Of a DNA stretch of 64,000 bases, positions 15,445-40,782 are shown one piece after another. Origin of the DNA: Chlorokybus atmophyticus (taxonomy: Eukaryota; Plantae; Mesostigma and Chlorokybus algae); NCBI GenBank assembly GCA_009103225.1, contig RHPI01002262.1, positions 1,060,955-1,124,954 on the forward strand, in the 5' to 3' direction. Numbering within the stretch: the stretch's first letter is position 1; each line of letters opens with the position of its first letter. The translations under genes were made by a program, and so were the position numbers. Under the pieces are notes generated by a model. The model did no database searches. It saw only the letters and a program-made list of their open reading frames with translations, and was not told the origin of the DNA.

Positions 15445-15876
15445 GTGCGACAATGTTACCATGAGACCAGATTGTTCCAAGGGCAAAACCATAAGTACCC
15501 AGCAGGAGCGTGCTATACTTGTGGTGGGACAATCTCAGAGGGCACAGGTGGCCGAAAGTGCGGGAAGTGCCGAAAGATGGGGACAACGTACGCGGCTTCA
15601 GTGAAGATGATGATGATTGACTGGGTAAGCACGGAGAAAGCAGCAAAACGGTTCCCGCAGTCAGTAGCTGCAGATTATACATCATATATGCAAAGCGATG
15701 ATAACGTAGCATTTATTGCAATCATTAACGGATTGTCCATATCAGACGCTGTAGAGCTAGCGCGCAGAGAGAACCTTGCAGCTAAGCGCAAAGCAAAGGG
15801 CCTTAACCAACCAGAATATAACTCTATACTCTCGTTTAAGGAGATGATGCGGGTGCACTTGGTCAGACGTACTTAA
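15445..15876 (+). CDS. 143-aa ORF with a CxxC..CxxC putative zinc ribbon, function unknown
   Basis: ACYTCGGTISEGTGGRKCGKCRK followed by a helical-looking tail. No family recognised. Confidence 0.3.
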   Translation: MRQCYHETRLFQGQNHKYPAGACYTCGGTISEGTGGRKCGKCRKMGTTYAASVKMMMIDWVSTEKAAKRFPQSVAADYTSYMQSDDNVAFIAIINGLSISDAVELARRENLAAKRKAKGLNQPEYNSILSFKEMMRVHLVRRT

Positions 15877-15954
15877 TACGCTTTGATACTTAGAGGTCTA
15901 CTAGGGGTGCATATTAAGTGTTGGAGTCATGGGTGGGCTCAAAGAAGACATTAA

Positions 15955-16400
15955 CATACGGAATTTTTTCCGCGGATGGCCCTGGTCCGCACATACGGAT
16001 CAGGGTCAAATTGCCCGGGCGGCTTGGGGTCCGGACGAGAGTCGCCCGCCTTGGTCTGCGCGCGGGGACCAGGGCTGGTATAAACAATACGTAATTGTCC
16101 CACAGTCCCCAAAAACCGGACCAGCCCCAAGTGCTTTTAACATGGCGAGCTTAACAGAACCAATGCTGGTCTGCCATGCGTGTTGCTGCATGGACTAAGG
16201 ATGGTCCGCTCTTGGCACGATTATGCTGAGAAAATCACCAGTACTGGTACCGCGTAGCACGACCATCCCTAGATTGCACCGTTGAACCATGCATGGTCCG
16301 TTTGTAATGTGAACGTCAGCCCGGACAGTTCGCACAGATGGTCCCGAGCAATGGGACCAACCATGGCTTTGCCGGTGGGACCATGCCTGGTCCACACCCA
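15955..16400. repeat. GGACC/GGTCC-rich subterminal repeat cluster; putative left end of a large CAC-type DNA transposon
   Basis: Many GGACCA/TGGTCC motifs (for example GAACCATGCATGGTCC, GGACCATGCCTGGTCC). Begins CATACGGAATTTTTTCCGCGGA, which resembles CACACAGGGGTTTTTACGCGCGGA at 60603. Confidence 0.5.
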
Positions 16401-16599
16401 GCAATTGCTGCATTCCAAAACTCACAGCATTAGTCCACGCTTGCATCCAAAGACTAGCATTGGTGCACGACACCCGCTGGCATCCTGCACCAATGCTACT
16501 CTGTGACCCATGCACCAGCTATTCACATAAACGAATTGTAAACAATTGTATTATATGGTGCGTGCCTGGCAACCAGCATAATGTCAAATAGCTATGCTA

Positions 16600-17720
16600 A
16601 TTGCAACAGCATTTTCGTAACTACTACTCTCCAGCGCTCATGGACCACCTATAATGAGGTTGAGGCGCACGCTGCTCACACCATGTGGTCTAGGCACGCA
16701 CACCTTCCTTCTTGCACAGTACTTGCGTTTGTAGAGGGCCTGTCAGCTGAACAAGTGCACGCCGTGTGCGCCAACATCTGTTGTTGACGTACACACTGCG
16801 CGCACTCTTTGTAAGAGCCACACAGCAAGCTGTGAAACACATTGTACATTCCTTAAAGGTAGCAACTTTGCACAAATCTGATACCTATCAGTCTTGCAAT
16901 AATGTCCTACATGGCTCCCATCGCCCCATGATGCGGAACCTCTTGGACACGGGCGTTTCACTTTCAGCCGGCATGCCTGCATTCATATAGAGTAGTGAGT
17001 ACGTACAAGCACATACACAGAGCAACCGCTCATACATGGCACTATTAGCTTACAGCTTACCTGCCTACGAGCATATTCTATAGACTGTTGTGTGACACTG
17101 TGCACTGGTCACAGCTGTCATGCCCACGAGCGCTCTTTTGTTTGAGCGATCTATGCGCTCAAAACATACCTGGCCGTTTCCTCGTGTTCATCCCGCTTAG
17201 CTGACCACCCACTTCTCTTTGATTGCAAACCGCACAACCACTTGCATAATACGCTTTGTTGGAAAGCTGACCATGGGCCTGGTCGCAAAAGGGAAGAGGT
17301 GCCACGCTCTCCATTAGCGCCACCTCCCTCTTCCGCCAGAATTCTCATTGCCGGCCAACTTGCGCACTGATACGTGTTTGCTCAGTGCCACGGCACACAG
17401 CCGCCAGCACCTGCAGCTTCTCATCATCCACTGAATTCTCGCGGGCGGTGCCGTGCATGGGCACACCATAAGCACAATCAGCAATAAATCGAACAAGAAA
17501 CTTATGGGACACAGCTAACAAACCTGATTGCCTTGATGATGCTGCGCATCCAGTTCTTCAAATACTCTCACCTGGTATTTGCCCATCCGAACGTGCCTAT
17601 TGAATCTGCATTCCCCGTTTTCATAGACGCAGTTTTCATAGACGCCTGGTATTTGCCCATCTGGCTCATGAACACAAGTGGCCACTCAACCGTTACGCTC
17701 TACGCATGCACTCCATTAGT
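16600..17720 (-). pseudogene. Decayed intron-containing gene of unknown function (possible transposon cargo)
   Basis: Exon VPMHGTARENSVDDEKLQVLAAVCRGTEQTRISAQVGRQ*EFWRKREVALMES..YYASGCAVCNQR ends at a GTATG donor with one TGA. A Cys-rich exon lies near 16700-16830. Confidence 0.35.
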
Positions 17721-18453
17721 TGCGAGTGTCATAGGCGATTCACTTGTGCACACTTTAGCCATCTACACGCAACGCATGTCTCGGACTTATTGGCATGCAG
17801 TGACAAAAACATAGACTGTGCACTGACTGACAATTTAAACTTACCTTTAGCTCGGCGCGTGTGTAATAATCCGGTGTCTTGCCATTGTCGCAAATTTTTC
17901 ACGGTGACTGACTAAGGACTGAGGAACTGACTGGTGCCTGAGCCTGCCTGAGCCTGCCTGTCGCTACCTGAAATATAACTTGTGGACTGTTGGGTTTGCC
18001 GTTGGCTTAAATGGACTGACGCAGACGGCCGCGGGCCGAAAGTGGTTGTCAGTGGCACTATCCGGCCGAGAGTTGTCAACTAGTTACCCTTTGGTCGATG
18101 TGCATAGACGGCCGTTAGCCGGTAGTCACGGACAGCTGACAGCAATAGCCGACAGTTTCTTTGCCGTTACACTGCTGTTAATATGTGACCCTTGCCGTTT
18201 GACAAAAGTTGGCAATTCTTGCCGTAAGCCAACACTAACATGCCATGCAGCTTGTACAAACCTAGTACTAATTGTTTGGTCTTGCACCTATAAGCCCACA
18301 ATATATACAATGTACCGGCAGTGGTGAGAGTATGTCCACTTGCAACTGAGCAGCCAACTTGCGCATGAAACTAAACTGCCCTATAACATTGAGTCTAGCT
18401 GTCGGACTCATGCGCAGCTTGTCAACCCGTGGTGCCTGCCTCAAAACTCCTCC

Positions 18454-19280
18454 TCAAACCCCCTCCTCCTGTTCCTCACACGACAAGTGTTCTGCTTCAA
18501 CGCCGGAGTCATCTTCATCCGCTGCCTCGCTCGCTGACAGTACAGCGGCTATTTCGTCCTTCAGCTTGAATGTCAGCGCCTCGCCGTGCACGCGCATGCG
18601 CTTGATGGTTGCTTTGAGAGTGACCACCTGCATTTGGTAATGCTGTAAGAGTGGCGTTACGGTAACTGAGGACTAGCCCATCAGCATACACATGCTTACC
18701 TTGTTTTCCGCTTTGTTGCACTCCGCCAGGCAGACAATCAGCCTGCCGCGCTGCTCTCGGTTCACTCTGACCAACATGGCAATCTGCAAGCATACTGCTT
18801 AATTACCGCTGGAAACATTAAACTAGGTCATGGATTACCCGCTCATGGTACTCCGCAGCTTCTCTTTTGCGACTTGTGAGCTCCCGCAAGTAGACATAAG
18901 CTGTGCATTTGCGGGATTGGTCATGGTGTTCATATGCATGACACTGGAGGTTGTGCGTGAGGGTGTGCATGTGGTATTGACGGTGTATGTCAAGTGCAAG
19001 ATACTTGAGGCTGTGCATGTGCAAGATAAAAGAACCCTAGCATGTGGCATTGACAGTGCATCGTAACCCACCTTGGTTATGCCAGTCTTGTTTGGTCCCT
19101 TCAATCATGTCGCCGTGGTCGCAGCTGCTGGTGGGTCGGATTTTCTTAAAGGCAGTATTGTGGTGTGCCTTCGCCCACTCGGAGGGGGAAGCCCTATAAG
19201 ATATCGCCCGAGTCACTGTTGTCATTGGCTGTGCCCTTGGTAGGCATGGTGGGGTTTGACACCGAGGACACACCTCCGGC
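18454..19280 (-). pseudogene. Spliced helical/coiled-coil gene remnant, divergent from the Plavaka transposase
   Basis: Three exons join in phase through GT-AG introns: AYVYLRELTSRKREAAEYHER|IAMLVRVNREQRGRLIVCLAECNKAENK|VVTLKATIKRMRVHGEALTFKLKDEIAAVL..EEQEEGV*. The 5' extent is uncertain. Confidence 0.45.
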
Positions 19281-19475
19281 ACCCTGCCCGCCCTGTGCGA
19301 ACATGGAATTTATCCCGGACCTCGACCACAATGCCCACTACGCCCCTGGCAGCGCCGCCAACGATCCTCCAAACGCCACATACCCTCGGCATCACGCCTC
19401 TGTAAGGGCATAGCTTGGCGGAGCTATCAATGGTGTTTTCATGCGCAGGGGGACTGACATTGCCAGAGTTGTCAA

Positions 19476-19685
19476 TGGTACGAACTGCCATTGCCACTGT
19501 ACAAAGGTACCATTTTAATGGTACCTTTTGGCAAAGGCATCTTCGTACAATGCCTATACCTTTTGGCAAAGGCATCTTCGTACCATTGAAACGGTTCAAT
19601 CAGAATATATATGTATATAAAAATATCCAGAGACTCACCCTGGACGTGCAATGGCTCGATCGTACCATTATAATGGTACGACGGA
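19476..19685. promoter_or_regulatory. GTAC-core motif array upstream of the transposase
   Basis: 8 GTAC in about 205 bp (CGTACCAT/ATGGTACG-like), including a direct repeat CCTTTTGGCAAAGGCATCTTCGTAC. Regulatory role is inferred. Confidence 0.5.
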
Positions 19686-19841
19686 GCCAGTGACTGGCGG
19701 CCAAGTTTCCCGCCTCTGGCATGCAAGGGTAGCGGTGGCGGTGGCGGTGGCGGCGGCGGCGGCGGCGGCGGCGGGTGTGCGTGTTGCTGGATATGATGCA
19801 GGTTACATTGGCGACACCTGTGTCGACGTTAGTAGTGAGAT

Positions 19842-22800
19842 ATGGGAGTCCTTTGTCCGTATTGCCACATGCGCTTCGCCACACGCAGCTCGGTCTACAT
19901 GCACATTATTAGCAGCAGGGTGTGCAAGCAGATCAAGCTGTATGTCGGCCAGCGTCCATTACAGTACGATGCGGGTCATGTTGAACCGGGGAGTTCGATC
20001 CAGGATGCTCACATGCTTGATGCTGAAGGATTCCTTCAGGAGACACACGCACAGCAGCAACAGGAGGAGGAGGAAGTGAACGAGGGCTTTCGATGTGTGC
20101 GTGTGCCTGAGAAACCTGTGGCACGCCAACATGGAAGTGGAGGCGTCCCTTCGCACGCGTCGGAATCCAGGTGGTATGGCTCGGAGCATGCTCTTGCAGT
20201 GGCATTCGTGCAGTGCAACAACGGCCAAGGCCTGTCGGCCTCCGACATGGGGCGGATCATCAAGTGCATCCGAAATGCACACTTCCTGACGGAAGAGCTC
20301 CAGTGGGAGACCGGTGTGCATGTGGCCAGCTACCTCCGGACCACGATTGCTTTCTCTCAGTCTGAGGTGTGTTCACGGTGTGCGGTGCATGTGCTTCAAC
20401 CATCAGAGCCATGTCACATATGCACATGCGAGTGTGCTGCCGTATCAGAACTACGTGACGGCTGACCTGCGCAAGCCTGGAGACCCTGAGGATCAGGACA
20501 TCTGCGTCACATATATGCCGGCCAAGGTCTGTGAAATGCAGTACCTAATGCAGTATCGATGCAGTATCTATTCTAAGGCCATCATAATAAGTAATGCTCT
20601 TGGTCGGAGCAGGTATGGCTCGCGCGGTTGTATGGCAATCCACATGCCACCAATGGCTTCAATCTTCAGTACAGTGGTGACGAGCACAGCTTTGGCCATC
20701 CTTCCACGGGCGATTGGTGGAAGGATGTGGAGGTGGATTTAAGGAGAGAGGTGGGGAAAGCGTCCTACTTGGCGCCTGCCATTCTGTACAGTAACAAGAC
20801 CACGCTGGACAGCGCGAGCAAGCGCTCTAGCTACCCTCTGATGGCATCGCTTGCCAACTACAGTTGGGACATGTATGCTAGCAACATGGGGGTTGTTATG
20901 ATAGCGCTTCTACCGGTGGTTCACGCAGTGGCCGGGCATCCCACCTGGGCGCAGGGCAAGGAATCGTTCTCCATTCGAAAACGTGAGATTTTTCATGACG
21001 CTTTAAATGTAGTGTTAGGCGATGTGAAGCGGGCGAGTTGAGAAGGTCTGCAGCTCATCGACCCGAATGGCATCGAGCGTCGTGTGTTTCCCGCGCCTGC
21101 CAACTACATCAGCAATTTGCAGGTAGTGGGCATGAATGGTTGTAACCGGATGCAGCCTGCCAGCAAACAGTGCATGGAGGATGTTGTCAGTAGAACATCT
21201 GAGTTTGTTGTGTTGTAGGAGACTGCCACACTCGCACGCACTGTGTCGGGCAACCAAACACGACATCCTTGCGATATTTGTCTCGTCACCAAATCAGATC
21301 TGTTGGAGATGGACGAGGACTGGGAATTGAGAACCGAGGCCTTCTACACACAAGCAATACGTCAGCTGTGGGCGGACCTGCATGGCGGTGTTAGGAAAGC
21401 ACGCCAGGCAGCCAAGGCTTTCAAAGAGCAGCACTCCATGCATGTCGTGGAGGTAATGGTCAAATTATCGGCATTCGTGAGGATGAATGGCTTTCCGTGA
21501 AACCAGGCAATGTGGTTTTGCAACAGATTGCACTGTGGGGTTGGCGACAGTTGCGGGTGCCGGGAGCTGACTGCTACTCTCGTCTTGCCCCTGACGCAAT
21601 GCATGTGCTGGGAGGCATCTTTGACCAGCTGCTTGCTGCTGTGTACGACACCGCGAAGGAACGAATGCGTCCATCCACGAGACAGATTCTGCAGGCCAGG
21701 CACGTCTTTGGTGTTGCTTTTGTGTTTAACACAAAAGCCAACGACACGTGCTCACAAGCAGATGTGCACAGGCTGAATGCAAGGCGTCTCTACGGGTTTC
21801 GCACGTCAAGGCACCCACAAGCACAGTATATTTCTTCCTGTCCGACCACTCCTTTCAGGTGGTGGAAAAAGTGGCGGTGCTGCAGCTGCTGCCGGTCCTC
21901 GCAGACGGTTTGCTGCTCGACAGTGAAGGCAACGATTTCTTCACCATTGCTGCCGCATCGCTTGCCCAGTGGAACAAGAAGTTGTTCAAGGCGCATGAAC
22001 ACACAAGAGAGACCCTGACCACAGCCGACAACGAGCTGGCTGCTTTCAACGCTGCAGTGTTGCATCCGCTACTGTCGTCATATTCTGCACAGACGTCAGG
22101 TTGGAAGATCGAGAAGATGCATCAGCTCACTCATTTTGGGCCGGCAATTGTCAGCAGTGGACACCCGGATTGGTTCAGCGCCAACCGCATGGACCAGACG
22201 CACGCCCAAAATATCAAACGGCGGGCGCGTGGTGGCAACAACCGGGACTACCAGGCACGTATCGTGAAGGCATGAAGCTGTGCGGAATATGTGAGAGAGG
22301 ATGGCATGGTCGTGGATCCCGAGATGCGCTCGGTCATGGCGCAGGCGCGGCAGCAGTGCTGTAATGTCATGGAGAAGACGGACAAGTTGATACGGTTGGA
22401 TGTGCTGACAAGGAGGAAGTCCATGCCGTACTGGAGCGGATCTACGCGTAGCCGCCAAGTCGCCTTGAAGACTCCATTTGCCGACAAGCTGCCTGCTACC
22501 GTGCACAGCTGGTTGAGGAGGGAACAACTGGAGCTGGCCAACGGGTGGCGTGCTGTTCGCGTGGTGAACGGAGGCGCAGCGGTGTACATGACATCAAGAG
22601 TCAGCATGGCGCGCACAACTAGGATGTTCCATGGGCGGCCTTACACGTGAGTTGAAAGGTGATGAGGACGGTGTGAACGTGACATGGTGGGCTCAGGCAC
22701 TCCTTTTTCTGCGCGTGGTGGTGTGGGGTGGTAGCGGCGAGCGCGTGTGGAAGGAGGTCGTGTTTGTCCGCTGGTACACGAAGCTGGATGTGACGAGCGA

Positions 22801-22972
22801 CACAAAGTGCATCGCTCTGGAATGGGAAAAGCGTCGAGGCGGTCCGCATCTCGATGTCGTGACTCTGGAGCAAGTAAAAGGCATTGTCCAGCTGCTCCCC
22901 GTGTTTGACAAGAACAGCGCCCGTGTACAAGAGGGCAAGTATTGGGTGAACGTTCACTGCACTTCCACGTGA
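19842..22972 (+). mobile_element. Plavaka-family (CACTA/CMC-related) transposase, intron-containing pseudogene
   Basis: N-terminal C2H2 finger CPYCHMRF..HIISSRVC. Core motifs HPSTGDWW, APAILYS(N)KTTLD..SYPLMASLAN, REIFHDALNVVL, ERRVFPRL, CDICLVTKSDL, PDAMHVL.GIFDQLL, WKIEKMHQLTHFGPAIVSSGHPDWFSAN, C-terminal VFVRWY..VKGIVQLLP. Several stops and frameshifts. Confidence 0.85.
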
Positions 22973-23175
22973 CACATGTACTTGTCTCACTACTATGAGT
23001 TTGGAGCATATCAGTCAGTTAGGCATTGCTAATCGTATGCTAAGACTTTTGCATGTGGACGTGTACAATACCGGGCAGCTGGCACTGCACAACTGTCACC
23101 ACAATTGAATGTGCCATGCAGCATTCAACAATCAGTCCGCCGTGTGGCATTAAGCATCAATACAGTGCACCACAC

Positions 23176-24900
23176 TCAAGCCTCATGGTTCCATGACACA
23201 GGAGGGTAGTCACAGCCCATATCCATTGTTTCAAGCATGAGATGCCCTATGCACTCCGCTATTGCGGGAGGAATTGCATTCGCTATGGAAACGGCCGAGG
23301 TCATCCATGGCACTCCCAGCGCTGTTTGCCACGCAACAATGCCGCCCCTGGTGCTTGGAAGGCCATAGACTGGGTACATCTGCTGTGGCGCGTTTGATCT
23401 CACAATTGTCTTCTTCGCGCTAGCGGACAGGTGCGGCGATAGCAGTCCAACTGCCTTGCCCGCGTGCGAGCAGCGTGCTGGTGGGGTAGCTACCACTGGC
23501 TGTGTCTCGAACAGACGGTGTCGGAAAGTTGATAGGCCAAACATCGTGCTACAAGGGGACAGATTGGGTCTGAATGAGGAAGCTGCTCCTGGCACATTCT
23601 CAATCACAAACTTGACCTGGCTTGCAAGCAGCAGACGTCGGACGAGCGGTATCATATCCTGGTGTCTCCAGGATGTGCCATGTGCCGCCCGTTGAGGTGC
23701 CGGGATAGCACTTGAATAGACCTGGCATGGTGGACTGGCCCAGATGAGCTCATACTCGCTCAGCTCTCCTGCACTCAGGGTGCATACATCGCGGTGTATA
23801 AAGGGCAGCGGGTATTAAGAGGAGGGACTTATGTCCATCCCGGTCACGTCAAAGCCTGCGTGGTATAGACCGACACTGGCACCGCCACCGCCGCAGAATA
23901 AGTCGAGTGCCCTTGGTCTGCGTGTGCGTCCAAACTTGTTGTCAAATGGCGTGTATGTGGTCAAGGCTGGCCGTGGTGCTGGCCAGGGACCAACAATAAT
24001 GCCGTCCGGGCTTACTTTACGACTGACGTTCTCCCCTTCGGCGCGCAGAACATGGCGTGCCCCGTCAACTGATGTGTACGCGAATACGTTGTGCCCTTTG
24101 AAGTTGATGGTTTGTGGTCGATCACCGTCATTGAATACTATACGGTGCTGCCCTGCAAAGACATTTTTCATTGCACCATGCATATATGATGCGTCCTCAA
24201 TCTCGCACGCCACGAAGCGATGCTGACCTGACGCTTGCTTGAATGTTTCCACGACGCCCGCATACCATTCCCCATCCAGCGGCCAATGCACCACGACACT
24301 CACACCGATCAGCTGCTCGCATCCCAACTTACTGCGTTCCGCAGCCGATGCAGTGCGCTGTCCAACGGTCGATGGTCTGCCTCCTCTACAGCGGCCAGGG
24401 GATGGAACTGCCCACGCCCACACCGTGGAAGACTGCTATGAATGCAACAACAGCTTCAACATGCATGAAATAAGCATACGCCCAACATAACATGCGGTGA
24501 TACGTCACGGTCCACTCTGCCGAATTACCTCCACAGCATCCACCACCTGTCCCCTAATCACATGTCCCGGTGTTGTCCATGTGAAGAAGCGCATGGGTTC
24601 CCCTCGCCACTCGAAGCATGAGCGCGAGCATGATTCGCACACGCACTGCACGCAATGGAAAAACTCGGGTTCCTTGCACAGCACTTGGCCGAGGCGGCAG
24701 CCAAGCACGTCGCCATTGTGTGGTGTGATGCCAGCAAGCAGCACTAAAATCGTGGCACACTGTCTGCACTCGCTGGCATTCGGTCAAGTGTGCTTGCATT
24801 TACTGCCTACGGCCATTGGCACATACGTACGCATTGCATTGTGGGCACACCAAGCATGGTCTCTCCTAGGTGAGGGGGATTCAACTGCTGCCGACATCAT
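23176..24900 (-). pseudogene. Cys-rich domain + Tudor domain + C5 cytosine DNA methyltransferase fusion gene
   Basis: Motif I ALDLFCGGGG (about 23881-23910), II GFDVTGMDI, IV IWASPPCQ (Cys 23725-23727), VI VIENVPG, VIII RHRLFET, X ANAIPPAIAECIG, all in one frame with a single TAA at 23815-23817. Tudor LIGVSVVVHWPLDGEWYAGVVETFKQAS|GQHRIVFNDGD is split by a 75-bp GT-AG intron (24227-24153). Upstream CRQC..C..C..FFHCVQC.C..C exon with a TGA. Start codon uncertain. Confidence 0.85.
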
Positions 24901-25019
24901 GCAAAATAGGAATCGGCACGGCTGCCCACAAACTGAGCGAGACTGTAGGGTATGGGCATCAATTTAGGGTTGCTAGCTTACGAACCCTAAATGGGTCAAA
25001 CTTCAAGTGAAGCACGACT

Positions 25020-25100
25020 GTACCAAGGACGCTATTGCAAACCCATGCATGGTACTACATCAACATGAATGGTACTTCATCTGTCAATGGTACTACAGTA
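25020..25100. promoter_or_regulatory. GTAC array upstream of the methyltransferase gene, with paired telo-box-like motifs just downstream
   Basis: 5 GTAC in about 80 bp (ATGGTACT three times). ATTTAGGGTT (24962-24971) and AACCCTAAAT (24983-24992) form an inverted pair. Confidence 0.45.
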
Positions 25101-25390
25101 CAAGGACACTCGCATACCACGATCTACCACGATCGTAGAGTAATACTGTGATGTCATGCCATGGAACCTAGAGCGCTGTTCAAACTTATTGCTGTCAACC
25201 ACGCTCCAAACCAGCGAGGTTTGCAAGCCATGCACTGACTCATGCGCCGGGCAGTCATCATACACATGTACAACCAATGCTTCTGACAACAGCAGATCTC
25301 TGGTGCACCATGCGTCATGCTGCAACTATACATGTACCTACATGGTTCACAGGAAGCCAACACAATACTACAATACATGCACAATTGGCA

Positions 25391-28300
25391 TTAAGGTGGG
25401 GGCCAAATTACCGCCGACACGTTGGCGTCTTGCATTAGGCATGGCAACCAAAAAGGGTGAGGTTGCTTGCAGAATGGACACGCTTGTATATTCTTTGATT
25501 TATTTGCCACAGTCTTCTGATGTGCTATGATGCAGACATGGCACATCGCTTTCTTGTAACAGGGCGTCTCCCCATCCGCTGGGGGGGAGGGCTCTTCAAT
25601 GCGACAAATCAGCACACATGGTGCACGCGGGTGTGCAAGCTGCCTCTGCCACCAAACTCTGTTATCGCGTCGCAGGCGTANCAGGCGTAGCGACTCCCAT
25701 CCGAATGGCGCAGCATAACGCTTCACTGCCTGCTTGATCACCTGTTGCCCATCTGCCGCCATACACCACCTGCTGGTTTTGGTGGTCTCGTCAAGCATGC
25801 GTTCATCCAGGCCCTCGACATGGCTGTCGTCACTCGTGTACTCCCCCGCATCATCATTTTCTTCGAGCTTCCACAGAATCAGCTTGACGTGCCGTATGAC
25901 ATACAGCCACTGCCAGCCAAAGCATGCCAAGTACAGCTCGAATGATTTTACTTGCCACCCGGTATGTTTGCTCAGGTAGTGGCACACATCTCGACCCGCA
26001 TTAGTCGACATCGACAGGTACATCTGCTGCAGCAGGTCGAAGTTCTGCTCCGCAAATAGCTCTTGCACATTGCCGGGTTGCTGCGGCAGCAACAACACCA
26101 TCATATCGAGGACGGCGAGGGGCAACAACGTACTACGGATGGCCATATCGTGTATGGGTTCCAACCATGGCCAATCCCCAAAGGTCTGTTTAGACCGCAC
26201 TCTCCGCGTTTGCTCCCACTTATTGCATACTTTCGTCACCCACTCCGAGGCATGCCGCATGCGGTGATGCAGCGCGTCTTGGGCGTACTGTAGGGTGATC
26301 AACTCCTTTGCACTACGAGTCAACCCCTCAAAGCGTCTGCGCGTCGGTGCTTTGAGCTTAGGCAGCTCGTGCCGCACCGGCTGTCTCTCCGGACGATGCT
26401 GAGCAGCCACTTGACGCTGTAAACCCGCCTGTGCCTACTCAGGACACACAGTCAGCCCCAGTGAGGCTTCAAGGCGCTGTGCTTCTTCTAATGTTGTAAC
26501 GATTCCTTTACCTTTCCATTTTTGGTCCTGTCAGCGTCCTTTGTTCAAATAACCTTCTTCTTTGTTTTTTGTCACCCTGCACATCCTGGCAGGCGCTCTC
26601 CGTGGCACTGTCACTCAGAGGAGGTAAGGCGTTATCTTCTTGCTCCACAGCCTTGCGCTTGTTGATTGCCTCCCGTTCCTCCACGACCTCATGTTGCTTC
26701 ATAAGGTCGAGCATGAAGCCTTTGTCTTTCAGCGCAGCTTTCTGGACACCTCGATCAATCTCTTTACCAACAAGACAGAATGGAATTAATGTGGCAAGCT
26801 TAGAGGGAGAGGGCGAGCTGCAGCTGCTTCTTGATGGAGATGCCTCCGGATGGTCAGAGTGCCGTGGCAAGTGAGTCTCCGCGGCAGGAAGGGAGGGTGC
26901 TGAATTGGGATTGTGAGCATGTGGTTGTGGTTGAGGGGAGGCAGGATGTGCAGAACACTCGGCTACTTTTTGCATAGCACACGAAGGCGAGGCCTGAGGC
27001 GTTGGCGCAGCACTCTGGGTCACAGCCGGTGGTAGCGGGGAATTGGCAACGCCATTCCGCCACTCTCCGATTAGGTGTGTTACCTCCGGTGGCACTTCAT
27101 GCATAGGCCACGACCACTGTTCCGTGCTTGCAGGCTTGAGAAGCCAAAAGCGAGCTTCTGGCTCATCAGGAGCAGTGTTGCCCACCATCAGGACTGAGTT
27201 GGGGGCTTCTTTATTTCCAACCCAAGCTGCGCTGCCGGGCCGTAGCACCCACTCCCCTATACTCGCGCTGAACGGTCACGCAGGCAATCAATAAGCTCAG
27301 CTTGTTGGCAAACATGGTCATCTGCAGGTGCTCGATGTACACATTTTTTCTCCGCACAATCTGTCGCACCTTGGCCATGGCTAGGTCAATGTTGCAATTG
27401 ACATCAGCCAACATGGTCGCAGGCAGTTTGTTGTAACACTGCGCCATCTCTCCCGCGGCACCAGTGGCTCTGCAGAAGTCTAGGATTCTGCTCGCCACGC
27501 CTGCATCGACAGCCTTGGCGGTGATTTTGCGGAGCGTGTGCCCCCTGCCGTCGTCGTCCATGGTGTCCAGCATGGCCCAAAATCTGCTCGAGCTGGGGCA
27601 CTTGTGATCATCCAGGTCACTTTGCGCTATAAATGGCCTGGCGCAAAATACACAATGGTAGAAGCAATTACCATCCGTTGGCGCATTGAAGTGGTCCCAT
27701 GAGGCGAGCTGGCCACCTAGCATGAGTGATGGCCGTATGCGGTTGCGACCAGCTCCTCTGATGACCCGCTGGCAGGTGGTGACCCCTGCTGCATGCGCAT
27801 ACAGCACTCAAATGGTGTGTCTAACTGTGGACGGCAAGAGTCACAGTGACTGATAAAGTACCTGAGTTTGGGGCAGACTGCCGGCTACAACTTGCAGCGG
27901 GTGGGGTAAGGTAGGTGCAGAAGCCACATCGGTTGTTGCATTGTGATGTGGTCTCGCCGGTGGCGGCAAGAAGGATTGTTGCCCCGCAATCACCGGTGCT
28001 GCTTGTGGAGGAGATGGCAGTGCATGAAGGACTGGTGCCGCGGAAAGTGGTTGCGCTCTGGCTGCGAGGGGAGCAGGAGCTACAGGTGAGACCACTTGTG
28101 TATGCAGCAAGGGGGGCTATATACAGGACCCAGGATAAGATGGCTCACAATGTTGCAAAGGACGAATATAAGCTTATGCAGTGCCTGACGCATTTTACCA
28201 AGGCACGAGCATAAAAGACAGCGACTTACCTCAATGGCCCGTGGGCTGCATGGAGCAGGGGAAGCCATGGGGGTTGACAAGGTGGTATTGGGTGCACTCT

Positions 28301-29430
28301 CCCCGCCACCCTCGATCGTAGACTCGTTACGGAGCTTGTGAGCCATGGGCACATCATGCGCCACTGCCCCAATGGACATGTCGGGATTCAACAGGCCAAC
28401 ATGCATGTTAAACTGATGCCGCATTGTCGCCGCGCCCATCAGCAAGTGGGATTGAAGGACCGGTTGATGGGATTGAATCCAGGCTTGCATAGGAGCTCCA
28501 ACAGGACCTGGTGCACTGTGGTGCTGTCAACCAATCACATGTGGGTTAGCTGCATGCTTGCGACACTGCAATTGCAATAGTCAATTGCGTCACACCGTCA
28601 TCAGTTGGTTGCTTCGAACAGTCACCTACGGCATTGCTGGTTGATGCACGAATGATTGCATGGACTGCGTCATTGCTGGTTGATGCACTATTGGTTGAAT
28701 GCCGGACAAATGGCCACGCGCTCCTGTGCTCAAACCCAGCCTACTTCGTTCGGCACGCGCGCGCGACTTCGCACGCTCACGCACAACCTAGCATGCAAAG
28801 GTAGGCATGCATTGGAGGTGCATGCAGTCAACATGCACAGCGAGATTGGCAACAATATACCGCCGCCCAGCTCTGTCTATCTGCTCTGGCTTCCGCAATG
28901 TCGGCTTGACTGTAGGGTGGGTATGGGTGAATAGTGGAGGCCTGCAGCCACGCTACATATATCACATAGACTGCGCTAAAAAACAAATTGCTCTTGCAAG
29001 GAAATGCATGTGACTGTTGAGCGTACCTCTACATTCCTTTGTGCTTGTTCCCACAGCCGCAATTGGTCCCGCATGGTTCTGACAAGGGGCTCCAAGGACT
29101 GCAGCTCCTGACCCACTCCTTGTTGCAGAAAGCGAGCCACCAAACAGCTCTCTGTGCGAAGATGGTCTTTAATGGCTTGCCTGCTGGTTTGTCCAATGTT
29201 GGTGATGCATGTTGGACAGCATTGCTGACGCCTGTCATGATCCATGACGTGGCGACCGGTAGTAGCTGGCTTCGCTGCTTGAACTCTTATGACCACAACT
29301 TCTCGCAAGATGTGCGCCGTCGCCGCCGCCGCCTCCTCCGACTTCTGGTCCTCCGCCTCCTAGTCGAACCCAGGCCCATCAAGCGTGACATTCGACCCGT
29401 CATTGACCTGGTGCCCGTGCGTGCCATCAT
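25391..29430 (-). pseudogene. Multi-exon gene with an OTU-like cysteine protease motif and a C-terminal RING-like finger
   Basis: HFNAPTDGNCFYHCV (about 27650-27690) resembles the OTU Cys loop DGNC; later KNVYIEHLQMTMFANKLSLLIACV. C-terminal CVLIC..PCYKKAMCHVC..CPFC at about 25465-25620. Donor/acceptor sites link ORFs 28976-29308, 28080-28490, 27841-28110, 27211-27807, 26508-27248 and 25391-26410. Frameshifts present. Confidence 0.55.
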
Positions 29431-29522
29431 CCGGCCATCAATGAAGCGTGTTTGGGTGAGTGCACGCTAACTCCCATTTGGGCTGATCGAGCAATGCCTC
29501 TGTCGTACCATGGATGGTACGA

Positions 29523-29602
29523 CCAACCCCAGCCATTGCCGTACAATGGCTCTGTCGTACCATGGTACGACAGAGCCATTGTACGGCAATGGCTGGGGTT
29601 GG
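29523..29602. repeat. Perfect 80-bp spacerless palindrome inside a GTAC array (29490-29705)
   Basis: CCAACCCCAGCCATTGCCGTACAATGGCTCTGTCGTACCA|TGGTACGACAGAGCCATTGTACGGCAATGGCTGGGGTTGG; the 40-bp arms are exact reverse complements. Confidence 0.95.
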
Positions 29603-31276
29603 ACGAGAGATGCCTCTGTCGAACCATAAATGTTACGACACAACCATTGATACCAATGGTTGTACGAAGCATGGATGGCACGAATGCATAAGTCGTACCA
29701 TCAACCATATGAGCAAGGACGCACTACAAGTGCGACTCTAGTGCGGGACTCTAGACGTTCATAACCGCCTTATTTTCCTTTTTGCGTCTCGTACATTCGG
29801 GCGGGCCAACCGGCGGCGGCAACGCTGGAGGCGGCAGCGCCACTATCAGCTAAACAGGCGGCACCCAACTATCAGTTGGAGAGATGCCTCGTGGTCCATC
29901 CGTAAGTGCACCTCGTCGTGGAGGTCGGCGCCAGTTGTCCACATTGCCCCCACTGTTCAACCAGGCAACCGTTGCCAACCAATCGCAGCAAGACCCCGCG
30001 CTAACGCCCAGCACATCACAACAACTCCACCTGACACCGCAGTTGCAAGGGCAAGCTAGACCGCATGCGTTTTTGATGCACTGTGCACGTTGCTTCTTGC
30101 TCAACTTCTAACTTGGATGCTTGTTTCATGACTAGCACAGTGACTCACTGCATGTGTTCTGGATACACTGTGCACGTTGTTCTTTTTTTGCAACTGTGAG
30201 GGTTGCATCTTTCATGGCTGGCAGCATGACTTATGTGGTTGTGCTTGCAGAGGTTCGATTGGAACCCCCAACCCAAACGCATTTGGCCGTGACGTGGCAA
30301 CCTCGGCCGTCAGCAACCCTTCCCCAAGCAAGTGGAAGATTGGCAACGAGGTAAGCACTGTGTGACACTGTGACATTGTGTGTATGTGTGTAGCGGATTG
30401 TTCATGTGTGGACAGCATTTGCGAGATGCCGTTGTTGAAATTATAAACGGCCACTGAGTAGAGAGCCACGTTTATCTCAAGGAGGACACTATTTGTAGCG
30501 TCATGTGTCAGGTGCTGTGAATGCTTCATGACCGCACTGCACCGTGACACTGACCAACCTGCCCGTGACAGGTAGTTGGCTTCGACCATGACGACGAGGC
30601 CGATGCGGCCAATATCTATGAGGTGTACTGGACTCCCAAGGAGTGCCCCTTCCACTGGAGTGTCGCCTTGAAGAAAGCTACGCAGGTCCGGTCTGAGAAC
30701 GTCACCAAGATCAAGCATGTCCTTGAGAAGGAGTACAAGTGGACACCGTTTAACAGCAACAAGCGCAAGTGAGTTGGGTCCCTCACCACCATGTCTGCTA
30801 TGCAACACTGCCTTCTAACTCAGCCTCCATGTTGAGAAGCAAGCATGCAAGTGAAGAGGGCAAGCAATGACACACAGGAGAAGGCAACACACTTCCCGAT
30901 TTATTACCAACAGACCGCGGGGTTATATACCCGCCAGTCAGTACACAGTTTGTACACACTGCTGGTCTACATGCAACAGCGTCTGATATACTGAACCATA
31001 TCCTACGCTGTAAGATGTGCCACGTAGCTAACTTGATAAGCTTCGTAACAAGCTATGCCACGTCCTATAAGACTGAGTATCCTAGGAGATATGACGATTC
31101 TCCTAGGACCCTTCTCTGCAGTCCGCGCCAGGACCTTCATGTCCGGAGTCTTCGAGGTCCTCCCATCGAGGTCCCTTCTCTTCTCTCTTGTATGCAGGGC
31201 AGGCTGACCGGATGTAGGAATATCTTCAACACTCCCACGCGGGCAGCTTGGCCTCCAACGCTTGGTCTTCTTTCAC

Positions 31277-34200
31277 CTAAGCACATATGCCGAGTCCCTT
31301 GCAACATGCCTTGAACTTCAGCGGTGACAGTGGCTTCGTCATGAAGTCCGCGAGCATGTCTTCCGTATTGCAATATTGGAACTCAACCTCCTTGCGTGTG
31401 ACTCTGTCTCGCACAAAGTGATGCATGACATCAATGTGCTTTGTCCTTGTCGAGGCGATGGGGTGCTTCAGCAACTTGATGGCGCCTTGGTTGTCGCAGT
31501 TGATCGTGATGCACGCCATCGGTTGCTCCAGATCTGCCATCAGCTTGCGAAGCCATAACCCCTCCTTCACTGCAGCCGATGCTGCCATGTACTCCGCTTC
31601 CGAAGTAGATGCAGCTGTTGTGGGTTGCAGCCTACTGTTCCAGCTCACCACGCCTCCATTCAACTTGAAGACGTACGCCGTGGTGGACCTCCTGCTATCG
31701 AGGTCACCTGCAAAGTCTGCGTCGCAATAGCCCTCCATCTCTGTGCTTCCGCAACCAAACTTGATGCCAACACTTGCGCTTCCAGCCACGTAGCGCAATA
31801 CTCCCTTCGCTGCACGCCAGTGCTCCATGCTTGGTGCAGACATGTAGCGCGCAAGCACTCCAACTGCATGTGCGATGTCGGGTCTTGTGCACACTGCTAG
31901 GTAGAGCATACTCCCAACAAGCTCACCATAGGGATACTGAGCCTTGTCGAGTACTTCCTCATCTTTCGCTTTGACGAGGTTGGTGCCGAGTGCCAATGGA
32001 GTAGACTTGGTCTTTGCTTCGTTGAGTCCGAACTTGGTGACAAGTTGCTTCACCATCTGCTCTTGGCTGATCTTGATTGTGCGTGCTGCTCTGTCACGCT
32101 CTATCACCATGCCAAGAAATAACTTGACCTCTCCAAGGTCGCGTACTGCGAATGCTTGCTGCAATCCGTGCTTCGTTTCCTTCAGGTCTTCAACTTGCTT
32201 GGCCGTGACGATGATGTCGTCCACATACACGAGCAAGTAAACCTTCTTCTCTTCATGGATGAAGAGCCCCGGATCCGCTGAGGATGCTTTGTAGCCGAGT
32301 TTCTCCAACTCTTTCGTGAGGCGAATGTGCCACACACGTGGTGCTTGTCGCAGCCCATACAAAGCCTTGATCAACTTGCAAGCCATGCCTGGCTCCCCTT
32401 CTGCGTAGCCTGGTGGTTGCTTGGTGTAGATCTCTTCCTCCAGCTCTCCGTAAAGGAAAGCAGTCTTCACATCAAGGTGGTGACACTCGAGGTCTTCAGC
32501 AGCAACCATGGCGATCAATGTGCGGAAGGTTGCATGCTTACTTGCAGGTGCAAACACTTCATTGAAATCCACACCTTCTTGTTGCAAAAATCCCTTTGCC
32601 ACCAACCTTGCCTTGTAGCGCTCGATGTTGCCTTGACCATCACGCTTCACCTTGAACACCCACTTGACCGGAATGGGCTTCACACCTTGCGGGGGCTTCT
32701 CCAACACCCATGTGTTGTTGGCATGGAGTGATGCAATCTCATCATCCATAGCTCGCTGCCATTGTTCTGCATCTGGTGCTCGCAATGCCTCCTCGTAGGT
32801 GCTTGGTTCTTCACTCTCGTCATTGTGCACACTAGCGATGTGTGCCTTGTAGAAGTCAGGTGCTTGTCTTTCCCTCACTGGGTAGCGTCGAGCTTGCTCC
32901 TGCTGCTTCTGCTTCTCGCCTGCTACAGATGAGCCCTGCTCTTTATTGATGACTGATGCCTCGCCTTCAACCTCTTCTCTGCTTGAAAGCTCTTCAGGTT
33001 GTGCTTTGTCATCTTCATCTTGAGGGTAGAAACCTTCTTCAGCTTCAACTTGTGATGAGCCTTCGTGGAACACGACTTCTCTGCTCACCACAATCTTGCG
33101 CGTGTCCTCCAGTAGGACCTTGTACGCCTTTGAGCCTGGTTCGTAGCCAACGAAGATGCCCTTCTTGCTGACCGGCTCCAACTTGTGTCGCAATTGACTT
33201 GGCACAAGTGCATATGCCACACATCCGAACACACGCATGCCACTCACATCTGGCGCTTCACCGTAAAAGAGCTCCCACGGAGTCTTTTGCTCAGAGCTTA
33301 TCGGTGAACGGTTGCGGATGTAGTTGGCAGTGAGAACGGCCTCTTTCCACAGACTGTCCTCCAACTTGGTGTCATAGAGCATGGCTCGAACACGCTCCAA
33401 CAACGTTCGGTTGAGACGTTCAGCTGCTCCATTCCGCTGCGGAGTGTATGGTGCTGTTGTCTCATGCCGTATGCCTTTGCTGACGAAGAACTCTTTGAGC
33501 TGGGCGTTGATGTACTCCCCTCCTCAATCACTTCTCATTGCTTTCATTTTCTTGCCCGATTGAATCTTAAGCAATGCAATGACTGTACGCACAGCTCCAG
33601 CGACTTCTGACTTTTGAATCAAAGGGAACACGATGGAAAGCTTGCTGTAGTCGTCGAGGAATGTTGCAAAGTACCTTACCCCTCCTTTCGCCACAATCCG
33701 CATAGGCCCGCAAACGTCCATGTGCACAAGCTCGCAGGGATGTTTGCTACTTGAAGAAGATGATGAGAACGGCATGCGATGCTGCTTGGCCAACACACAG
33801 GGTTCACAGAGCGTAGTTGAAGACGCTTGAAAATCTTCCTTGCTCCCAGTAATGCCCTTCACCATGTCTTCAGCGACCAGGCGTGTGAGGTTGCTGTAGC
33901 CCAAATGCCCGAACCTTCGATGCCAAAGCTCAGCCGTCTCCTTCTCCTTCACAATCATGGCCTTGCTGCCATGAGTCTGCTCCACAATGTAGAGCCCTCC
34001 TCGTTGGGTGCCGACCATGTACTCGACCCCATCCATGCGTACGGAGCAGCGTCCCTCCCGGATCACTATCTCAGCTCCCACGCGCTCAGCAACTCTCACA
34101 GAAAACAAGCTTGCAGCAGCTCCAGGTACGTGCAATGTTTCACGCAGTGCCACCTCTCTCTCACCATCACCAATCTTGCATTGAAGCCTCACTTCACCAA

Positions 34201-35158
34201 CTCCTATTGCTTTCAACTCGTGACCACTAAAGCCTTCCACCTTCCTTGTGGTTGACATCTTCCTGTAGTTCTTCATCACCTCCTTGTGCGGTGTGAGATG
34301 CTGGTCACAGCCTGAGTCAATTGCCCATGAAGTTGTATCAAACTTCCTTGAGGCAGTAAATGCAACACCCTTTTCTTTGCGTTGAGCGTTGCTACTGGTG
34401 CCTGCTTCAGATTGGTCTCGTTGGCGCTTACGACAATCCTTTGAGATATGTCCTTTAATACCACAATAGTGGCATGTGAGATTCTTGAACTTTGAGTTGC
34501 TGCCTTTCGCCTTGTTCTTGTCTTCATAGTTGCTTAATTTCTTGTATTTGTCTCGTGTGTAGAAGGCCACAGAGTCCGCTTGCTCTTCCTTCTTTGAGAC
34601 GCGTTGCTCCACAGTGAGCAACTTGGGTAGCACATCGTCTAGGATTAGCTCCGATGACGATGTCTCGAGCAGAGTAGCGACAACTTCGTACGCTAATGGC
34701 AGTCCTGCAACAATCGCCAATACGACCTCCGTCTCTTCCATCTTGTGGCCGACATTGATGAGGTCCGCCCACAGCTCTCTCGCACGTGCAACATACTTTG
34801 TGACCGGCTCGGCCGTCTCTTTATGAAGCGCGCTTAGCTGCTTGCGTAATTGTATCTTTCTGGTGTTGTTCTTGGCTTGGAATACGGCTGCAAGCTTCTC
34901 CCAAGCTTGTCTGCAATCTTCACATGCTGTGAGCATGGGAAAGTGATGTGGCTTGCAGCTAAGCACCATCAATGAATGTGCTTCAACTGAGTGTTCAAGC
35001 CAGATGCTTTCTTCTCCTGCTCTTGGTGCAGATGCCTTCGGGTCAACATACTTCCACATCTTCTTGTGGATAAGTAGTGCCTTCATCTCTACGCACCAAG
35101 TGCTGTAATTGTTTGTGTCCAGCTTTGTGATCAGCCCTTTATTGTAGCTTGCCTCCAT
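31277..35158 (-). CDS. Copia gag-pol (gag, CCHC knuckle, protease, integrase, RT, RNase H) with one in-frame stop
   Basis: CHYCGIKGHISKDC, WAIDSGC, WHRRFGH, HMDVCGP, RSD*GGEY (TGA at 33524-33526 where CGA is expected), YVDDI, ADFMTK. One frame over 1294 codons. Confidence 0.95.
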
Positions 35159-35288
35159 CTTTGTTGCGCCTGCTTTCTTCTTGCAGTTAGCACTTGAGAC
35201 TTGCTTTGATAATCTTCACGTGTTGTGACTTGAGTGACTTTGTTGACTTCAGTAACTTTTTTACACTTCACTCTTCAGCGCCTTCAGT

Positions 35289-35352
35289 CTAACCCTAACC
35301 CTAACCCTAACCCTAACCCTAACCCTAACCCTAACCCTAACCCTAACCCTAA
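35289..35352. repeat. Telomere-type (CCCTAA)10 tract inside the Copia 5' leader
   Basis: CTAA plus 10 exact CCCTAA units between the PBS and the gag start, flanked by GAGTGACTT/CTTCAGTCT leader repeats. Confidence 0.95.
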
Positions 35353-37236
35353 TCCTGGTTTGAGTGACTTCAATGACTTCGGTCTTGAATGACTTCGGTC
35401 TTCACTTCACTTTTCAGCGCCTTCAGTCTCGAGTGACTTCGGTCTTCTCTTCACTCTTCAGTCTTGAGTGACTTCGATCTTCACTTCAATGCACTTTGTC
35501 ACTTTTCTTCACTTCGCTTTCTTTCTCTTTCTCACACTCTTCACGTGTAGTGTGGGCCCATAACCTGTTGAGAAGCAAGCATGCAAGTGATGAGGGCAAG
35601 CAATGGCACACAGGAGAAGGCAACACACTTCCCGATTTATTACCAACAGACCGCGGGGTTATATACCCGCCAGTCAGCACACAGTTTGTACACACTGCTG
35701 GTCTACATGCAACAGCGTCCGATATACTGAACCATATCCTACGCTGTAAGATGTGCCACGTAGCTAACTTGATAAGCTTCGTAACAAGCTATGCCACGTC
35801 CTATAAGACTGAGTATCCTAGGAGATATGACGATTCTCCTAGGACCCTTCTCTGCAGTCCGCGCCAGGACCTTCATGTCCGGAGTCTTCGAGGTCCTCCC
35901 ATCGAGGTCCCTTCTCTTCTCTCTTGTATGCAGGGCAGGCTGACCGGATGTAGGAATATCTTTAACACTCCATACACACGTACTCATCTCGCCTATTGTA
36001 ACCGATGCAATCAGGCACATCGACGCCCTAATGGACCCCGAGACCCAAAAAGCCCAGATGCGCAACGCGCTCCAAAGTAAGTCACAGGCACTATTTTAGC
36101 CTGGTGCAGGCTCAACTTGAACTATATATTTCGTGACCAATGCCTTGTCGAGATGACTGTCGCAGATAAGTCATGGCGGAGATTTGAGGTGACCGACACT
36201 GCAGACCCGGAGCGGAGGAGATACATCCATGAATGGGGCAATCCCATAATCTGGCAAATGATCGTGCAATGCTGGTCTTACGCCGTCACTACACCTGGTC
36301 GCCGGCAGCTGACAGTCAACCACCTCGCATACCTGTTGCTTACGGTGAGCACTCTGAACTCCATCATTAGCAATTCAGGAATGATGTAGCCCCAAACTAC
36401 AGGCTTGCAGACGCGTTGCAGTGAATAGTGGCTTTCGATGCCACTAAGACATGCCTGTAAACTACGCAGGTGGAGCGCATCCTAAAGGGCAAGGATGGAG
36501 ACCCTCTTTTAGCTGCCAGCATAGACACACATGAAGAGTACTTCAGCGAAATCAATACCATGATCATGTCAATGAAGCGGGAGATGAGGCAACGGTACGC
36601 AGCCCTCCAGCCATTCACCCTTGAAACGCCGCACTGCATCTTGTGTCGAATATCTGAAAGATCCCAATCGGCGCCGGCCGCAAGAGACAGCAGCTCGTGA
36701 CCCGCTCGCTGAGGCAGAAGCGGCATTTGATTGGCTGGCACAACCGTTTGAGGAGGAAGAGCAAGCTCCGGCGTCTCCTCCACAGGCCCCAGCGCGTGGT
36801 GCTTTGTTCCGTAATGACGAGACCAGCGATGATAGAGAGGAGCTGTAGCGCAGTTGGTAGTCCGTTTAGCTGGTAGTATACATAGCTACAAGGCTCTTAT
36901 GACTGAGTGTTGTGCGTCTTAAACCAGCTCAGTCAATCGTCATTATGCTCATGCATGTCAATACTTGCATCCCTATGATATACAACAGATCTGCATTCGA
37001 GTCACATAATCGAACTACAAGCCTTCGCAAGTGACTGAGAGACACTGTACACATTTCAGGTACCTGTACATAGCACAGGCACATAACAATGCTGGCAGTC
37101 AGTGACAGTCGCGTGTAGTCAAGCTATGCAACTATGACGACAGTTAGGCATTACTTTCAGTTGTTAAAGAATGCCTCAACTTGTCGATAATTACCTAGTT
37201 GGTGCTTGTGAATTAGGCTTAGTCGCCTGCGCTGAA

Positions 37237-37502
37237 CTGGTGTGTAACCTGCAGGTGCCTGTCACATAGGTTGAGTCACCTAAATAAGACTGATGTGTAA
37301 TATGCAAGTGCCTGCTAATTATGTGTAGTCACTTGTTAAGGCCTGATGTGGAACTTACAGGTGCCTGTACATTATACAAAGTCACCTGTTAAGGCCTGAT
37401 GTGTAACTAACAGGTGCCTGTGAGTTATATACAGTCATTTGTTAGGGCATGATAGGTAACTGACAGGCGCCTGTCAATTAGGCATAGTCAACTGTTAAAG
37501 AC
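37237..37502. repeat. Diverged tandem array, 53-bp unit x5
   Basis: CTGATGTGTAAC..CAGGTGCCTGT..AGTCAC.TGTTAAGG starts at 37237, 37290, 37343, 37396 and about 37449. Confidence 0.85.
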
Positions 37503-37575
37503 TAAATTGTAACAAAAAGGGCCTGATAGCAACGAAAGTTACTATCAGACCCTTTTTAAGGTCCCTGTATCAAGA

Positions 37576-38290
37576 TTACAGGTGGACTGAGCCACGACAG
37601 TCTAGATTAGTGTCCTCAGGCGCACGGCCGTTGCCAATATTTAGTCGGCCGGTAGGGAAAACATATTGCGACGCATGCATGAGACTTTGCGACCTGATAG
37701 GCATGAATGACCGCACGCTGTCATCCTCCACGCAAACCACTGACAGCCAATTGATGATCTGCATGCCGAATGTGCGCCAGGGCTCATCTACCTCGGCAAT
37801 CTTAATGATGGTGGCAATGGCCATGGGTACACATGGGTCTTCACAACTCGAGGATTGCATGTCGATGTCAAAAACTTTGTCTTCGTCGTAATCATTTGCA
37901 TGTCTGTACCTTATTGATAGGCATGATACTGGATAATACAACAGCTGTACGTTCAGCTTGCTTCACTTGCAGTGGAGTTGTCACAGTTCAGGATTGCATT
38001 CACACATTACACACATTGCACTCAGTCTTTACCTGAAATCGAGCCAAGTACCCCGCAGCACGTCTGGATAAAAACCGTCGTTCAAGGGGGACCACACCCA
38101 CAGAACGACTATTTTCAAAGGGCTGTAATCGTCAGGGCCAAGAACTCTTCCCCACACTGCAGACCGGCAACGAGCAGATGTGCCGTGTTCGGCAGTTCGC
38201 TCTGCTTCTTGAGCATGCGCAAGAGCTAGACCCGCTGCTCCCTGAACAGTTCTTGGCGTTCACCCCGTTCGTTTTTATCGCCCTCCCATA
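37576..38290 (-). pseudogene. Spliced gene remnant with a possible Tudor-like segment
   Basis: Exon ..LKIVVLWVWSPLNDGFYPDVLRGTWLDFR| (GTAAAG donor), then LSIRYRHANDYDEDKVFDIDM..VHL*. Confidence 0.35.
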
Positions 38291-38376
38291 AGTCCATTGG
38301 CGTTATATGCAATATGCCCAAATGTGCTCTGCTAAACAAATGTTATGAGCGACATGTCCACAAAACCGCTTTGTCT

Positions 38377-40700: not shown

Positions 40701-40782
<82 letters not shown>

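Follow-up and report, generated by a model that had tools for sequence, protein, structure and literature searches.

The Plavaka element, its contents and its copies

The window analyzed here is a 64,000-nucleotide stretch of Chlorokybus atmophyticus DNA (contig RHPI01002262.1), in which a Plavaka-type DNA transposon encloses a transposase gene and a decayed gene for a Tudor domain fused to a C5 DNA methyltransferase (MTase). The features of the element are as follows, with positions counted in the window and the evidence given in brackets.

17886..37673, no strand assigned: Plavaka-type DNA transposon of 19.8 kb, or 14.6 kb minus the nested copia (ends, 3-bp duplication, depth step)
17886..17900, plus strand: left terminal inverted repeat, imperfect (sequence)
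19842..22972, plus strand: Plavaka transposase gene, multi-exon and decayed, whose start is tentatively placed by a weak C2H2 finger exon
25049..25093, plus strand: ATGGTAC motif, three occurrences in front of the methylase gene start (motif picked after the fact)
25394..27807, minus strand: further cargo frames, with a weak likeness to RING at one end and to OTU in one stretch
30830..35972, minus strand: young copia retrotransposon nested in the element (LTRs 99% alike, long open frames)
37657..37673, minus strand: imperfect right terminal inverted repeat, with the 3-bp duplication directly after it (sequence)

CAT stands on both sides of the element and gives a 3-bp duplication at this one insertion, and the right end appears to lie at 37673. 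The similarity of the two arms was marginal, with 5 of 200 shuffles scoring equally high. In the available part of PMC12730594, Plavaka families have target duplications of 2-3 bp. The termini are TGT..ACA with 2 bp in PlavakaA and CATCA..TGATG with 2-3 bp in PlavakaB. The termini found here, TGT..ACG with 3 bp, are near those of PlavakaA in their letters and unlike them in duplication length. The available part of a further report places Plavaka in chlorophytes and streptophytes (bioRxiv 2025.10.09.681428). The transposase was matched by the Plavaka family PF18759 at 20595-21038 with an E-value of 1.3e-13 and a score of 51.3 bits against a cut-off of 26.3, and its C2H2 finger exon was matched at E 0.096. 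In other copies, which are more intact than this one, 8 extra bases reopen the last frame of the transposase, which then holds 234 codons.

We compared contigs of three sequencing runs from two studies (X1, X2 and X3, of which X1 and X2 represent one sample) with the window over positions 15000-31000. The element was approximately 97% alike in runs from the two studies, whereas the flank contigs were only approximately 80-86% alike. In X2, single contigs on the element had a depth of 84-109 and the flank one of 13.8; in X3, the values were 119-142 and 21.1. The contig depths on the unit were 6-8 times those on the flank, a ratio that is not a copy number. The depth changed in a step at approximately 17890, one contig departed from the window at 17887 into a different left flank, and the unit was covered in the runs as far as 31000, the edge of the compared stretch. 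The element is likely repeated. Additionally, one X1 contig spans 22021-24518, from the end of the transposase to the Tudor. The methylase gene lies inside the ends of the element and is accompanied by the transposase in other copies as well, in agreement with the linkage to Plavaka claimed in an earlier note on this DNA. The two genes are arranged tail to tail with 203 bp between their stops, close to the 200 bp given in that note.

The remaining contents of the element were less readily assigned. The RING match in the further cargo frames had an E-value of 0.1, and viral polymerase chains, which we take to be OTU, were matched at E 0.6-1.3. In the Pfam search, 87 of the 88 further frames in or near the element had no match. 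The nested copia is absent at this site from the other copies, as contigs of all three runs leave the window at 30830. Within the copia, eleven telomere-like CTAACC repeats were observed at 35289-35356, between the coding region and an LTR, and a single TGA at 33524-33526 parts two long in-frame frames of 563 and 748 codons; this TGA is either a read-through site or a lesion. Two tandem arrays were also observed, one with a 53-bp unit at 37221-37525, just inside the right end, and one with a 57-bp unit at 38375-38564, outside the element. The stretches at 39600-42100 and 46850-48800 presumably hold further decayed DNA-transposon-like frames.

The Tudor-methyltransferase gene and its lesions

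The methylase gene reads on the minus strand and is composed of the following parts.

23176..23943, minus strand: compact C5 DNA methyltransferase domain of the PHROG 363 family (Pfam, PHROG, motifs, fold model)
23815..23817, minus strand: premature stop codon TAA, located after motif II and before motif III (reading of the frame)
23944..24152, minus strand: second half of the Tudor, which supplies F, D and D of the pocket, plus the open linker that leads to the MTase (spliced reading)
24153..24227, minus strand: predicted 75-nt GT-AG intron within the Tudor (pocket register)
24228..24330, minus strand: first half of the Tudor, with the W and Y cage residues (7DE9 match)
24509..24900, minus strand: predicted first exon, Cys/His-rich, with a TGA at 24784-24786 (frame reading)

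From 24435 to 23176, the minus strand forms a single frame in which the TAA at 23815-23817 is the sole stop. LDLFCGGGG, SPPCQ, IENV, RHRLFE and NAIPP are all located in this frame, and the C5 motif order I, IV (PC), VI (ENV), VIII (RxR) and X is kept when the one stop is read through. With the stop read as X, Pfam DNA_methylase (PF00145) scored 26 bits, above its cut-off of 22 (E 7.5e-6), and the earlier reading of C5-MTase motifs in one frame with one TAA therefore holds. The PHROG 363 profile was matched over the whole domain at E 4.9e-27 (residues 3-233). A model of the MTase domain, built on 108 aligned sequences, had a pLDDT of 88.8 and revealed the C5-MTase fold, with DNMT3A/B, DNMT1 and a prophage MTase as Foldseek matches and a TM score of 0.71 for the best viral fold match. 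Across the 108 aligned relatives, window included, the columns of the catalytic residues PC, EN and R were invariant, while the window enzyme deviated at three near-invariant columns (positions 130, 132 and 228 of A5). The intact form would be predicted to carry out C5 methylation.

The earlier note had placed the enzyme in a compact phage or bacterial family rather than with DNMT1/3, and the PHROG 363, phage and PDB matches support this placement. In particular, no DNMT1/3 chain was found among the 16 PDB matches at E<=10, and the fold matches to DNMT3 showed 12-16% sequence identity. The closest sequence kinship in these matches was not to DNMT1, DNMT3 or CMT, none of their family domains (BAH, PWWP/ADD, chromo) was seen, and no Pfam match to a PWWP domain was found in the window frames. 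The trees described below contained no DNMT rows, and the separation from DNMT1/3 is that seen in the PDB matches and the fold identity. The compact phage and prophage methylases form a broad family, with 2301 matches at approximately 40% identity; one relative had 323 phage records, mostly from actinophages.

Upstream of the MTase, the unspliced query matched the Tudor of Arabidopsis RDM15 (PDB 7DE9, E 1.7e-4). The 53BP1 Tudor was also matched, though weakly, and this match was split in two by a 25-residue gap around the predicted intron. According to the available part of PMC8184781, RDM15 binds H3K4me1 via W616, Y623, Y641, D643 and D645. Splicing out 24227-24153 brought W, Y, F, D and D to the RDM15 pocket offsets, and none of the other in-frame GT-AG pairs spaced 40-150 nt apart, 39 in total with this one, restored the pocket register. 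The earlier note's PDS5-type Tudor is thus upheld by the 7DE9 match and the five pocket positions, and its 75-bp intron stands as a prediction from this single pair. The Tudor and the MTase share one frame, and neither a stop nor a Met occurs from the end of the Tudor to motif I, as expected from the direct fusion that had been claimed; the MTase therefore has no separate start in that frame.

The Tudor was the same in type as that of RDM15 and had the same five pocket positions; in contrast, RDM15 is not an enzyme, and its H3R2 contacts are absent from the window Tudor, in which Pro and Gly occupy the offsets of the H3R2-binding Glu and Gln (ungapped comparison). No Pfam Tudor model scored above its cut-off in the window frames, the Atlas matches were Tudor families yet under the recognition threshold, and folding the unspliced Tudor from its sequence alone gave a pLDDT of 41. 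Because the H3R2 contacts are lost and the Tudor is below the Pfam cut-offs, the histone mark is uncertain. From its pocket, the Tudor is predicted to bind monomethyl-lysine histone tails, probably of the H3K4me1 type.

A Cys-rich exon before the Tudor had also been described; we found the exon to be present, with a TGA at codon 39 that the earlier note had missed and that is the second stop of the gene. The exon matched no family in Pfam and further homology searches. Other copies have one extra base just before the Tudor, and when this base is counted, the Cys-rich exon joins the Tudor frame via a 73-nt intron to give approximately 525 codons, although other splice choices fit too.

The window copy is dead, with two stops and a one-base loss. 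Recoding of TAA/TAG as Gln was ruled out, as the resident copia contains no TAA or TAG and 50 CAA/CAG in 1311 codons and ends with TAG. The standard code applies, and the TAA in the methylase is therefore a real stop. Among the differences listed (40 of 643) is one between this TAA and the other copies, at the third position of the codon; a third-position change alone would still give a stop, and the family may therefore be dead throughout. No intact copy was seen in the contigs of the three runs among the differences listed. Thirty-eight of these differences lie inside the element (again 40 of 643 listed), including 19 C-to-T changes in the window copy. Nine of the 19 are at CG, compared with a background of 21% (p 0.008, among the differences listed), and this excess indicates that the element was CG-methylated, by whichever enzyme.

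The lesions bear on whether the protein was ever used. If the gene were passive cargo, pieces of a Tudor and a methylase would have been picked up as by Pack-type elements and spread without protein use. The two stops and the frameshift of the window copy relative to other copies, the TAA that may be common to those copies, and the fact that no second lineage with a Tudor-methylase fusion was found among 175 loci and 86 candidate proteins are all consistent with such a history. We nevertheless judge it unlikely, as approximately 380 codons from the Tudor to the end of the gene are open but for one stop, the catalytic and pocket residues and a clean intron are kept, and other copies restore the transposase frame. 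Moreover, the window enzyme shows only 40-52% identity to its nearest relatives, which implies long selection on the enzyme, before or after capture, and this also argues against passive cargo. The reading that we prefer is a gene whose protein served the element, as set out in the last section.

Relatives of the methylase and its origin

The window enzyme and its nearest relatives formed a clade with an SH-aLRT value of 95 in a 129-row tree, outside of which P0256, an incomplete sequence, fell. In a 60-row tree, from which two partial rows were omitted and for which 38 outside rows were sampled, the clade had a support of 99/94 and was nested in the phage family. The window enzyme differs from its clade relatives in a variable span, which is 43 aa in the window versus 77-193 aa in 18 of 18 complete clade relatives. 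When 28 relatives were scanned with Pfam, an MBD was above the cut-off in P0002 and P0138 and weak in three more, and an N-terminal CW finger was found in P0144 (E 7.7e-10). In the other subgroup, the insert was weakly MBD-like, and 5 of 13 sequences beat the best shuffle. Since relatives carry an MBD or a CW finger, reader fusion recurs in the clade. As for the small span in the window, either the insert was lost or the window lineage split off before its gain.

Several relatives are of interest in their own right. P0002, P0138, P0141, P0131, P0256 and L146:9890-11092 are compact C5 methylases with an MBD or its remnant in the target-recognition region; the MBD-insert relatives are apparently intact and intronless, and possibly more tractable than the window gene. 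P0121, P0122, P0132 and P0133 are fused to a 2OG-Fe(II) oxygenase or to a second C5 methylase (Pithovirus), or are doubled in tandem. On a metagenome contig dense in genes, an MBD match (E 5.7e-5) was found in a frame of its own (L160:3656-5530) near the clade methylase.

A motif covering only part of the clade gave one match in viral contigs, located in a giant-virus bin. This bin contained VLTF3 (E 5.6e-48) and PolB together with a weak capsid match, and neither an A32 ATPase nor a Plavaka match was detected in it. In metagenomes, 6 of 15 matches to the clade motif were confirmed, of which one was the same contig and two were near-identical, while in prokaryotic genomes none of 11 matches was confirmed. 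The confirmed clade loci were gene-dense, but only one was shown to be viral. Two further motif scans of viral contigs revealed phage-like loci only, and the clade motif was absent from the MTase frames of the first 80 phage-like loci. A pattern for the nearest subgroup of the window had no match in viral contigs, where no relative of the transposase exon was found either. Additionally, no Tudor or transposase relatives were present in the 175 loci, and among longer proteins we found no Tudor homologue in 86 candidates and no Tudor-fused relative of the methylase.

Direct capture of the methylase from a prokaryote, as the earlier note had suggested, is not supported in that form: readers of eukaryotic type (MBD, CW) are already present in the closest relatives, one of which belongs to a giant-virus bin. 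There was therefore probably an intermediate step in a eukaryote or a giant virus. We infer a putative route from phage to giant virus or eukaryotic mobile element, the direction of which is taken from the nesting in the phage family.

The giant-virus relative could also mean that the window gene is an endogenous giant-virus remnant, or a domesticated host gene, that came to lie beside the transposase by chance, and Amoebidium, with its Plavaka-flanked giant repeats and viral DNMTs, offers a parallel (PMC11244446, available part). We consider such an origin highly improbable, because the gene has an intron and sits within inverted ends and a target duplication, no viral marker family was found among the 13 + 88 frames scanned, and the giant-virus bin has no Plavaka match.

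Proposed function and comparison with known systems

The reading that we hold to be somewhat better than an even chance is that the window contains a decayed copy of a Plavaka accessory gene; the intact form likely made one protein, in which the predicted Tudor would guide the phage-family cytosine methylase to chromatin, to the benefit of the element. The compact phage/bacterial-family enzyme would have arrived by way of a giant virus or some other mobile element of eukaryotes, and an exon-borne PDS5-type Tudor would have been added in the eukaryotic nucleus. The Tudor would then dock on H3K4me1-type nucleosomes, where the enzyme would write 5mC de novo, most likely at CG; retrotransposon DNMTs provide an example of de novo CG methylation (PMC5890265, available part). 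A link of H3K4me1 to repressed chromatin has been reported for Chlamydomonas, and its generality is questioned within the available part of the same paper (PMC3664811). By marking its own new copies, the element might gain tuned activity or the look of host chromatin, which is the weakest step of the proposal.

A different benefit is suggested by the ATGGTAC motif. Of its 18 matches in the window, 15 are inside the element and 14 are in three clusters at gene starts; besides the three motifs just upstream of the methylase gene, similar clusters are located at 19475-19679 and 29505-29701. A 43-bp near-perfect palindrome was also observed at 29520-29605, by the last of these clusters. The clusters are possible candidate binding sites for an element protein, and in a VANDAL-like anti-silencing or decoy mechanism the protein would occupy marked nucleosomes or the ATGGTAC clusters and block silencing, with methylation being narrow or secondary. 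The placement of the clusters at gene starts fits this mechanism, as do the inverted-repeat arrays beside accessory genes in red-algal Plavaka (bioRxiv 2025.02.11.637652, available part). However, the choice of the motif was post hoc, its tie to the methylase protein is no closer than to the transposase or other cargo, and the catalytic residues are kept; we find the anti-silencing mechanism improbable and retain the steering of a methylase onto chromatin as the preferred reading.

More broadly, a lineage of chromatin-guided C5 methylases that arose from a compact phage enzyme may move among giant viruses and eukaryotic transposons while swapping its readers (an MBD within the target-recognition region, or a CW finger or Tudor ahead of the enzyme), with the Plavaka Tudor version live in some copies, where it would read H3K4me1 and write 5mC. 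We put this forward tentatively and with more doubt than belief. If intact, copies of the transposon could write their own epigenetic marks, and a live Tudor version would mean that a DNA transposon gives host chromatin its own read-write loop. The proposal predicts that de novo 5mC is linked to a monomethyl-lysine mark, and the MBD-insert relatives, being small, would be natural read-write methylases for maintenance or spreading. The entry of foreign methylases into eukaryotic chromatin has few worked cases (bdelloid N4CMT and retrotransposon DNMTs), and the present case offers a traceable route from phage to giant virus or mobile element and to a nuclear DNA transposon, with a reader gained underway.

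In the literature searched, which leaves most subscription papers outside, we found no description of a Tudor-C5-methylase in Plavaka or of the MBD-insert clade. The earlier note's claim of an undescribed architecture stands for the combination, for which no paper was found, and less so for the concept, given the Plavaka methylase-SET gene of Bostrychia. Each idea appears to have a precedent, while the combination and the clade appear to be undescribed. The papers compared below are cited for their available parts.

The compact phage MTases of PHROG 363 (mycobacteriophage genes and the first domain of Pithovirus LCPAC201) belong to the same family as the window enzyme, with approximately 40% identity and all motifs, and no paper was found that states their target sequence. 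Unlike the window gene, they are approximately 200-250 aa long and have no reader or intron. The retrotransposon DNMTs of Symbiodinium and charophytes (PMC5890265) are transposon-borne C5 methylases like the window gene, as mentioned in the earlier note; they differ in belonging to retroelements and in being mostly Dnmt3-derived, and neither Tudor nor chromodomain occurs in the main text of that paper. Mariner-1_OLpv of a giant virus (PMC3627910) is also a DNA transposon with a C5 methylase, but it is virus-resident and endonuclease-paired like a restriction-modification unit, with no chromatin reader described in the part available. ChloroDNMTs and orphan DNMTs (PMC12344493) are lineage-restricted algal DNMTs, some with a reader, and the orphans are of viral origin; however, the reader of the ChloroDNMTs is PWWP, not Tudor, and the orphans are generally without companion domains. 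MBD has no occurrence in the main text of that paper. Orphan and viral DNMTs were surveyed there and in PMC11244446, and the supplements may contain members of the MBD-insert clade.

Two systems combine a DNA methylase with a chromatin domain, as the window gene does. The bdelloid N4CMT (PMC8885841) joins a prokaryote-derived DNA methylase to a histone reader; it differs in writing 4mC, in using a chromodomain and in being a host gene that silences transposons, whereas the window fusion is a C5 enzyme with a Tudor and is itself transposon-borne. The giant Plavaka elements of Bostrychia (bioRxiv 10.1101/2025.02.11.637652) are similar in size to the present element (17-19 kb) and have several accessory genes and arrays beside the cargo. 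Their PAG2 likewise carries a DNA methylase and a chromatin domain, but there the methylase is of the N6-adenine type (PF01555) and its partner is a SET writer, in contrast to the C5 methylase (PF00145, PHROG 363) and Tudor reader in the window.
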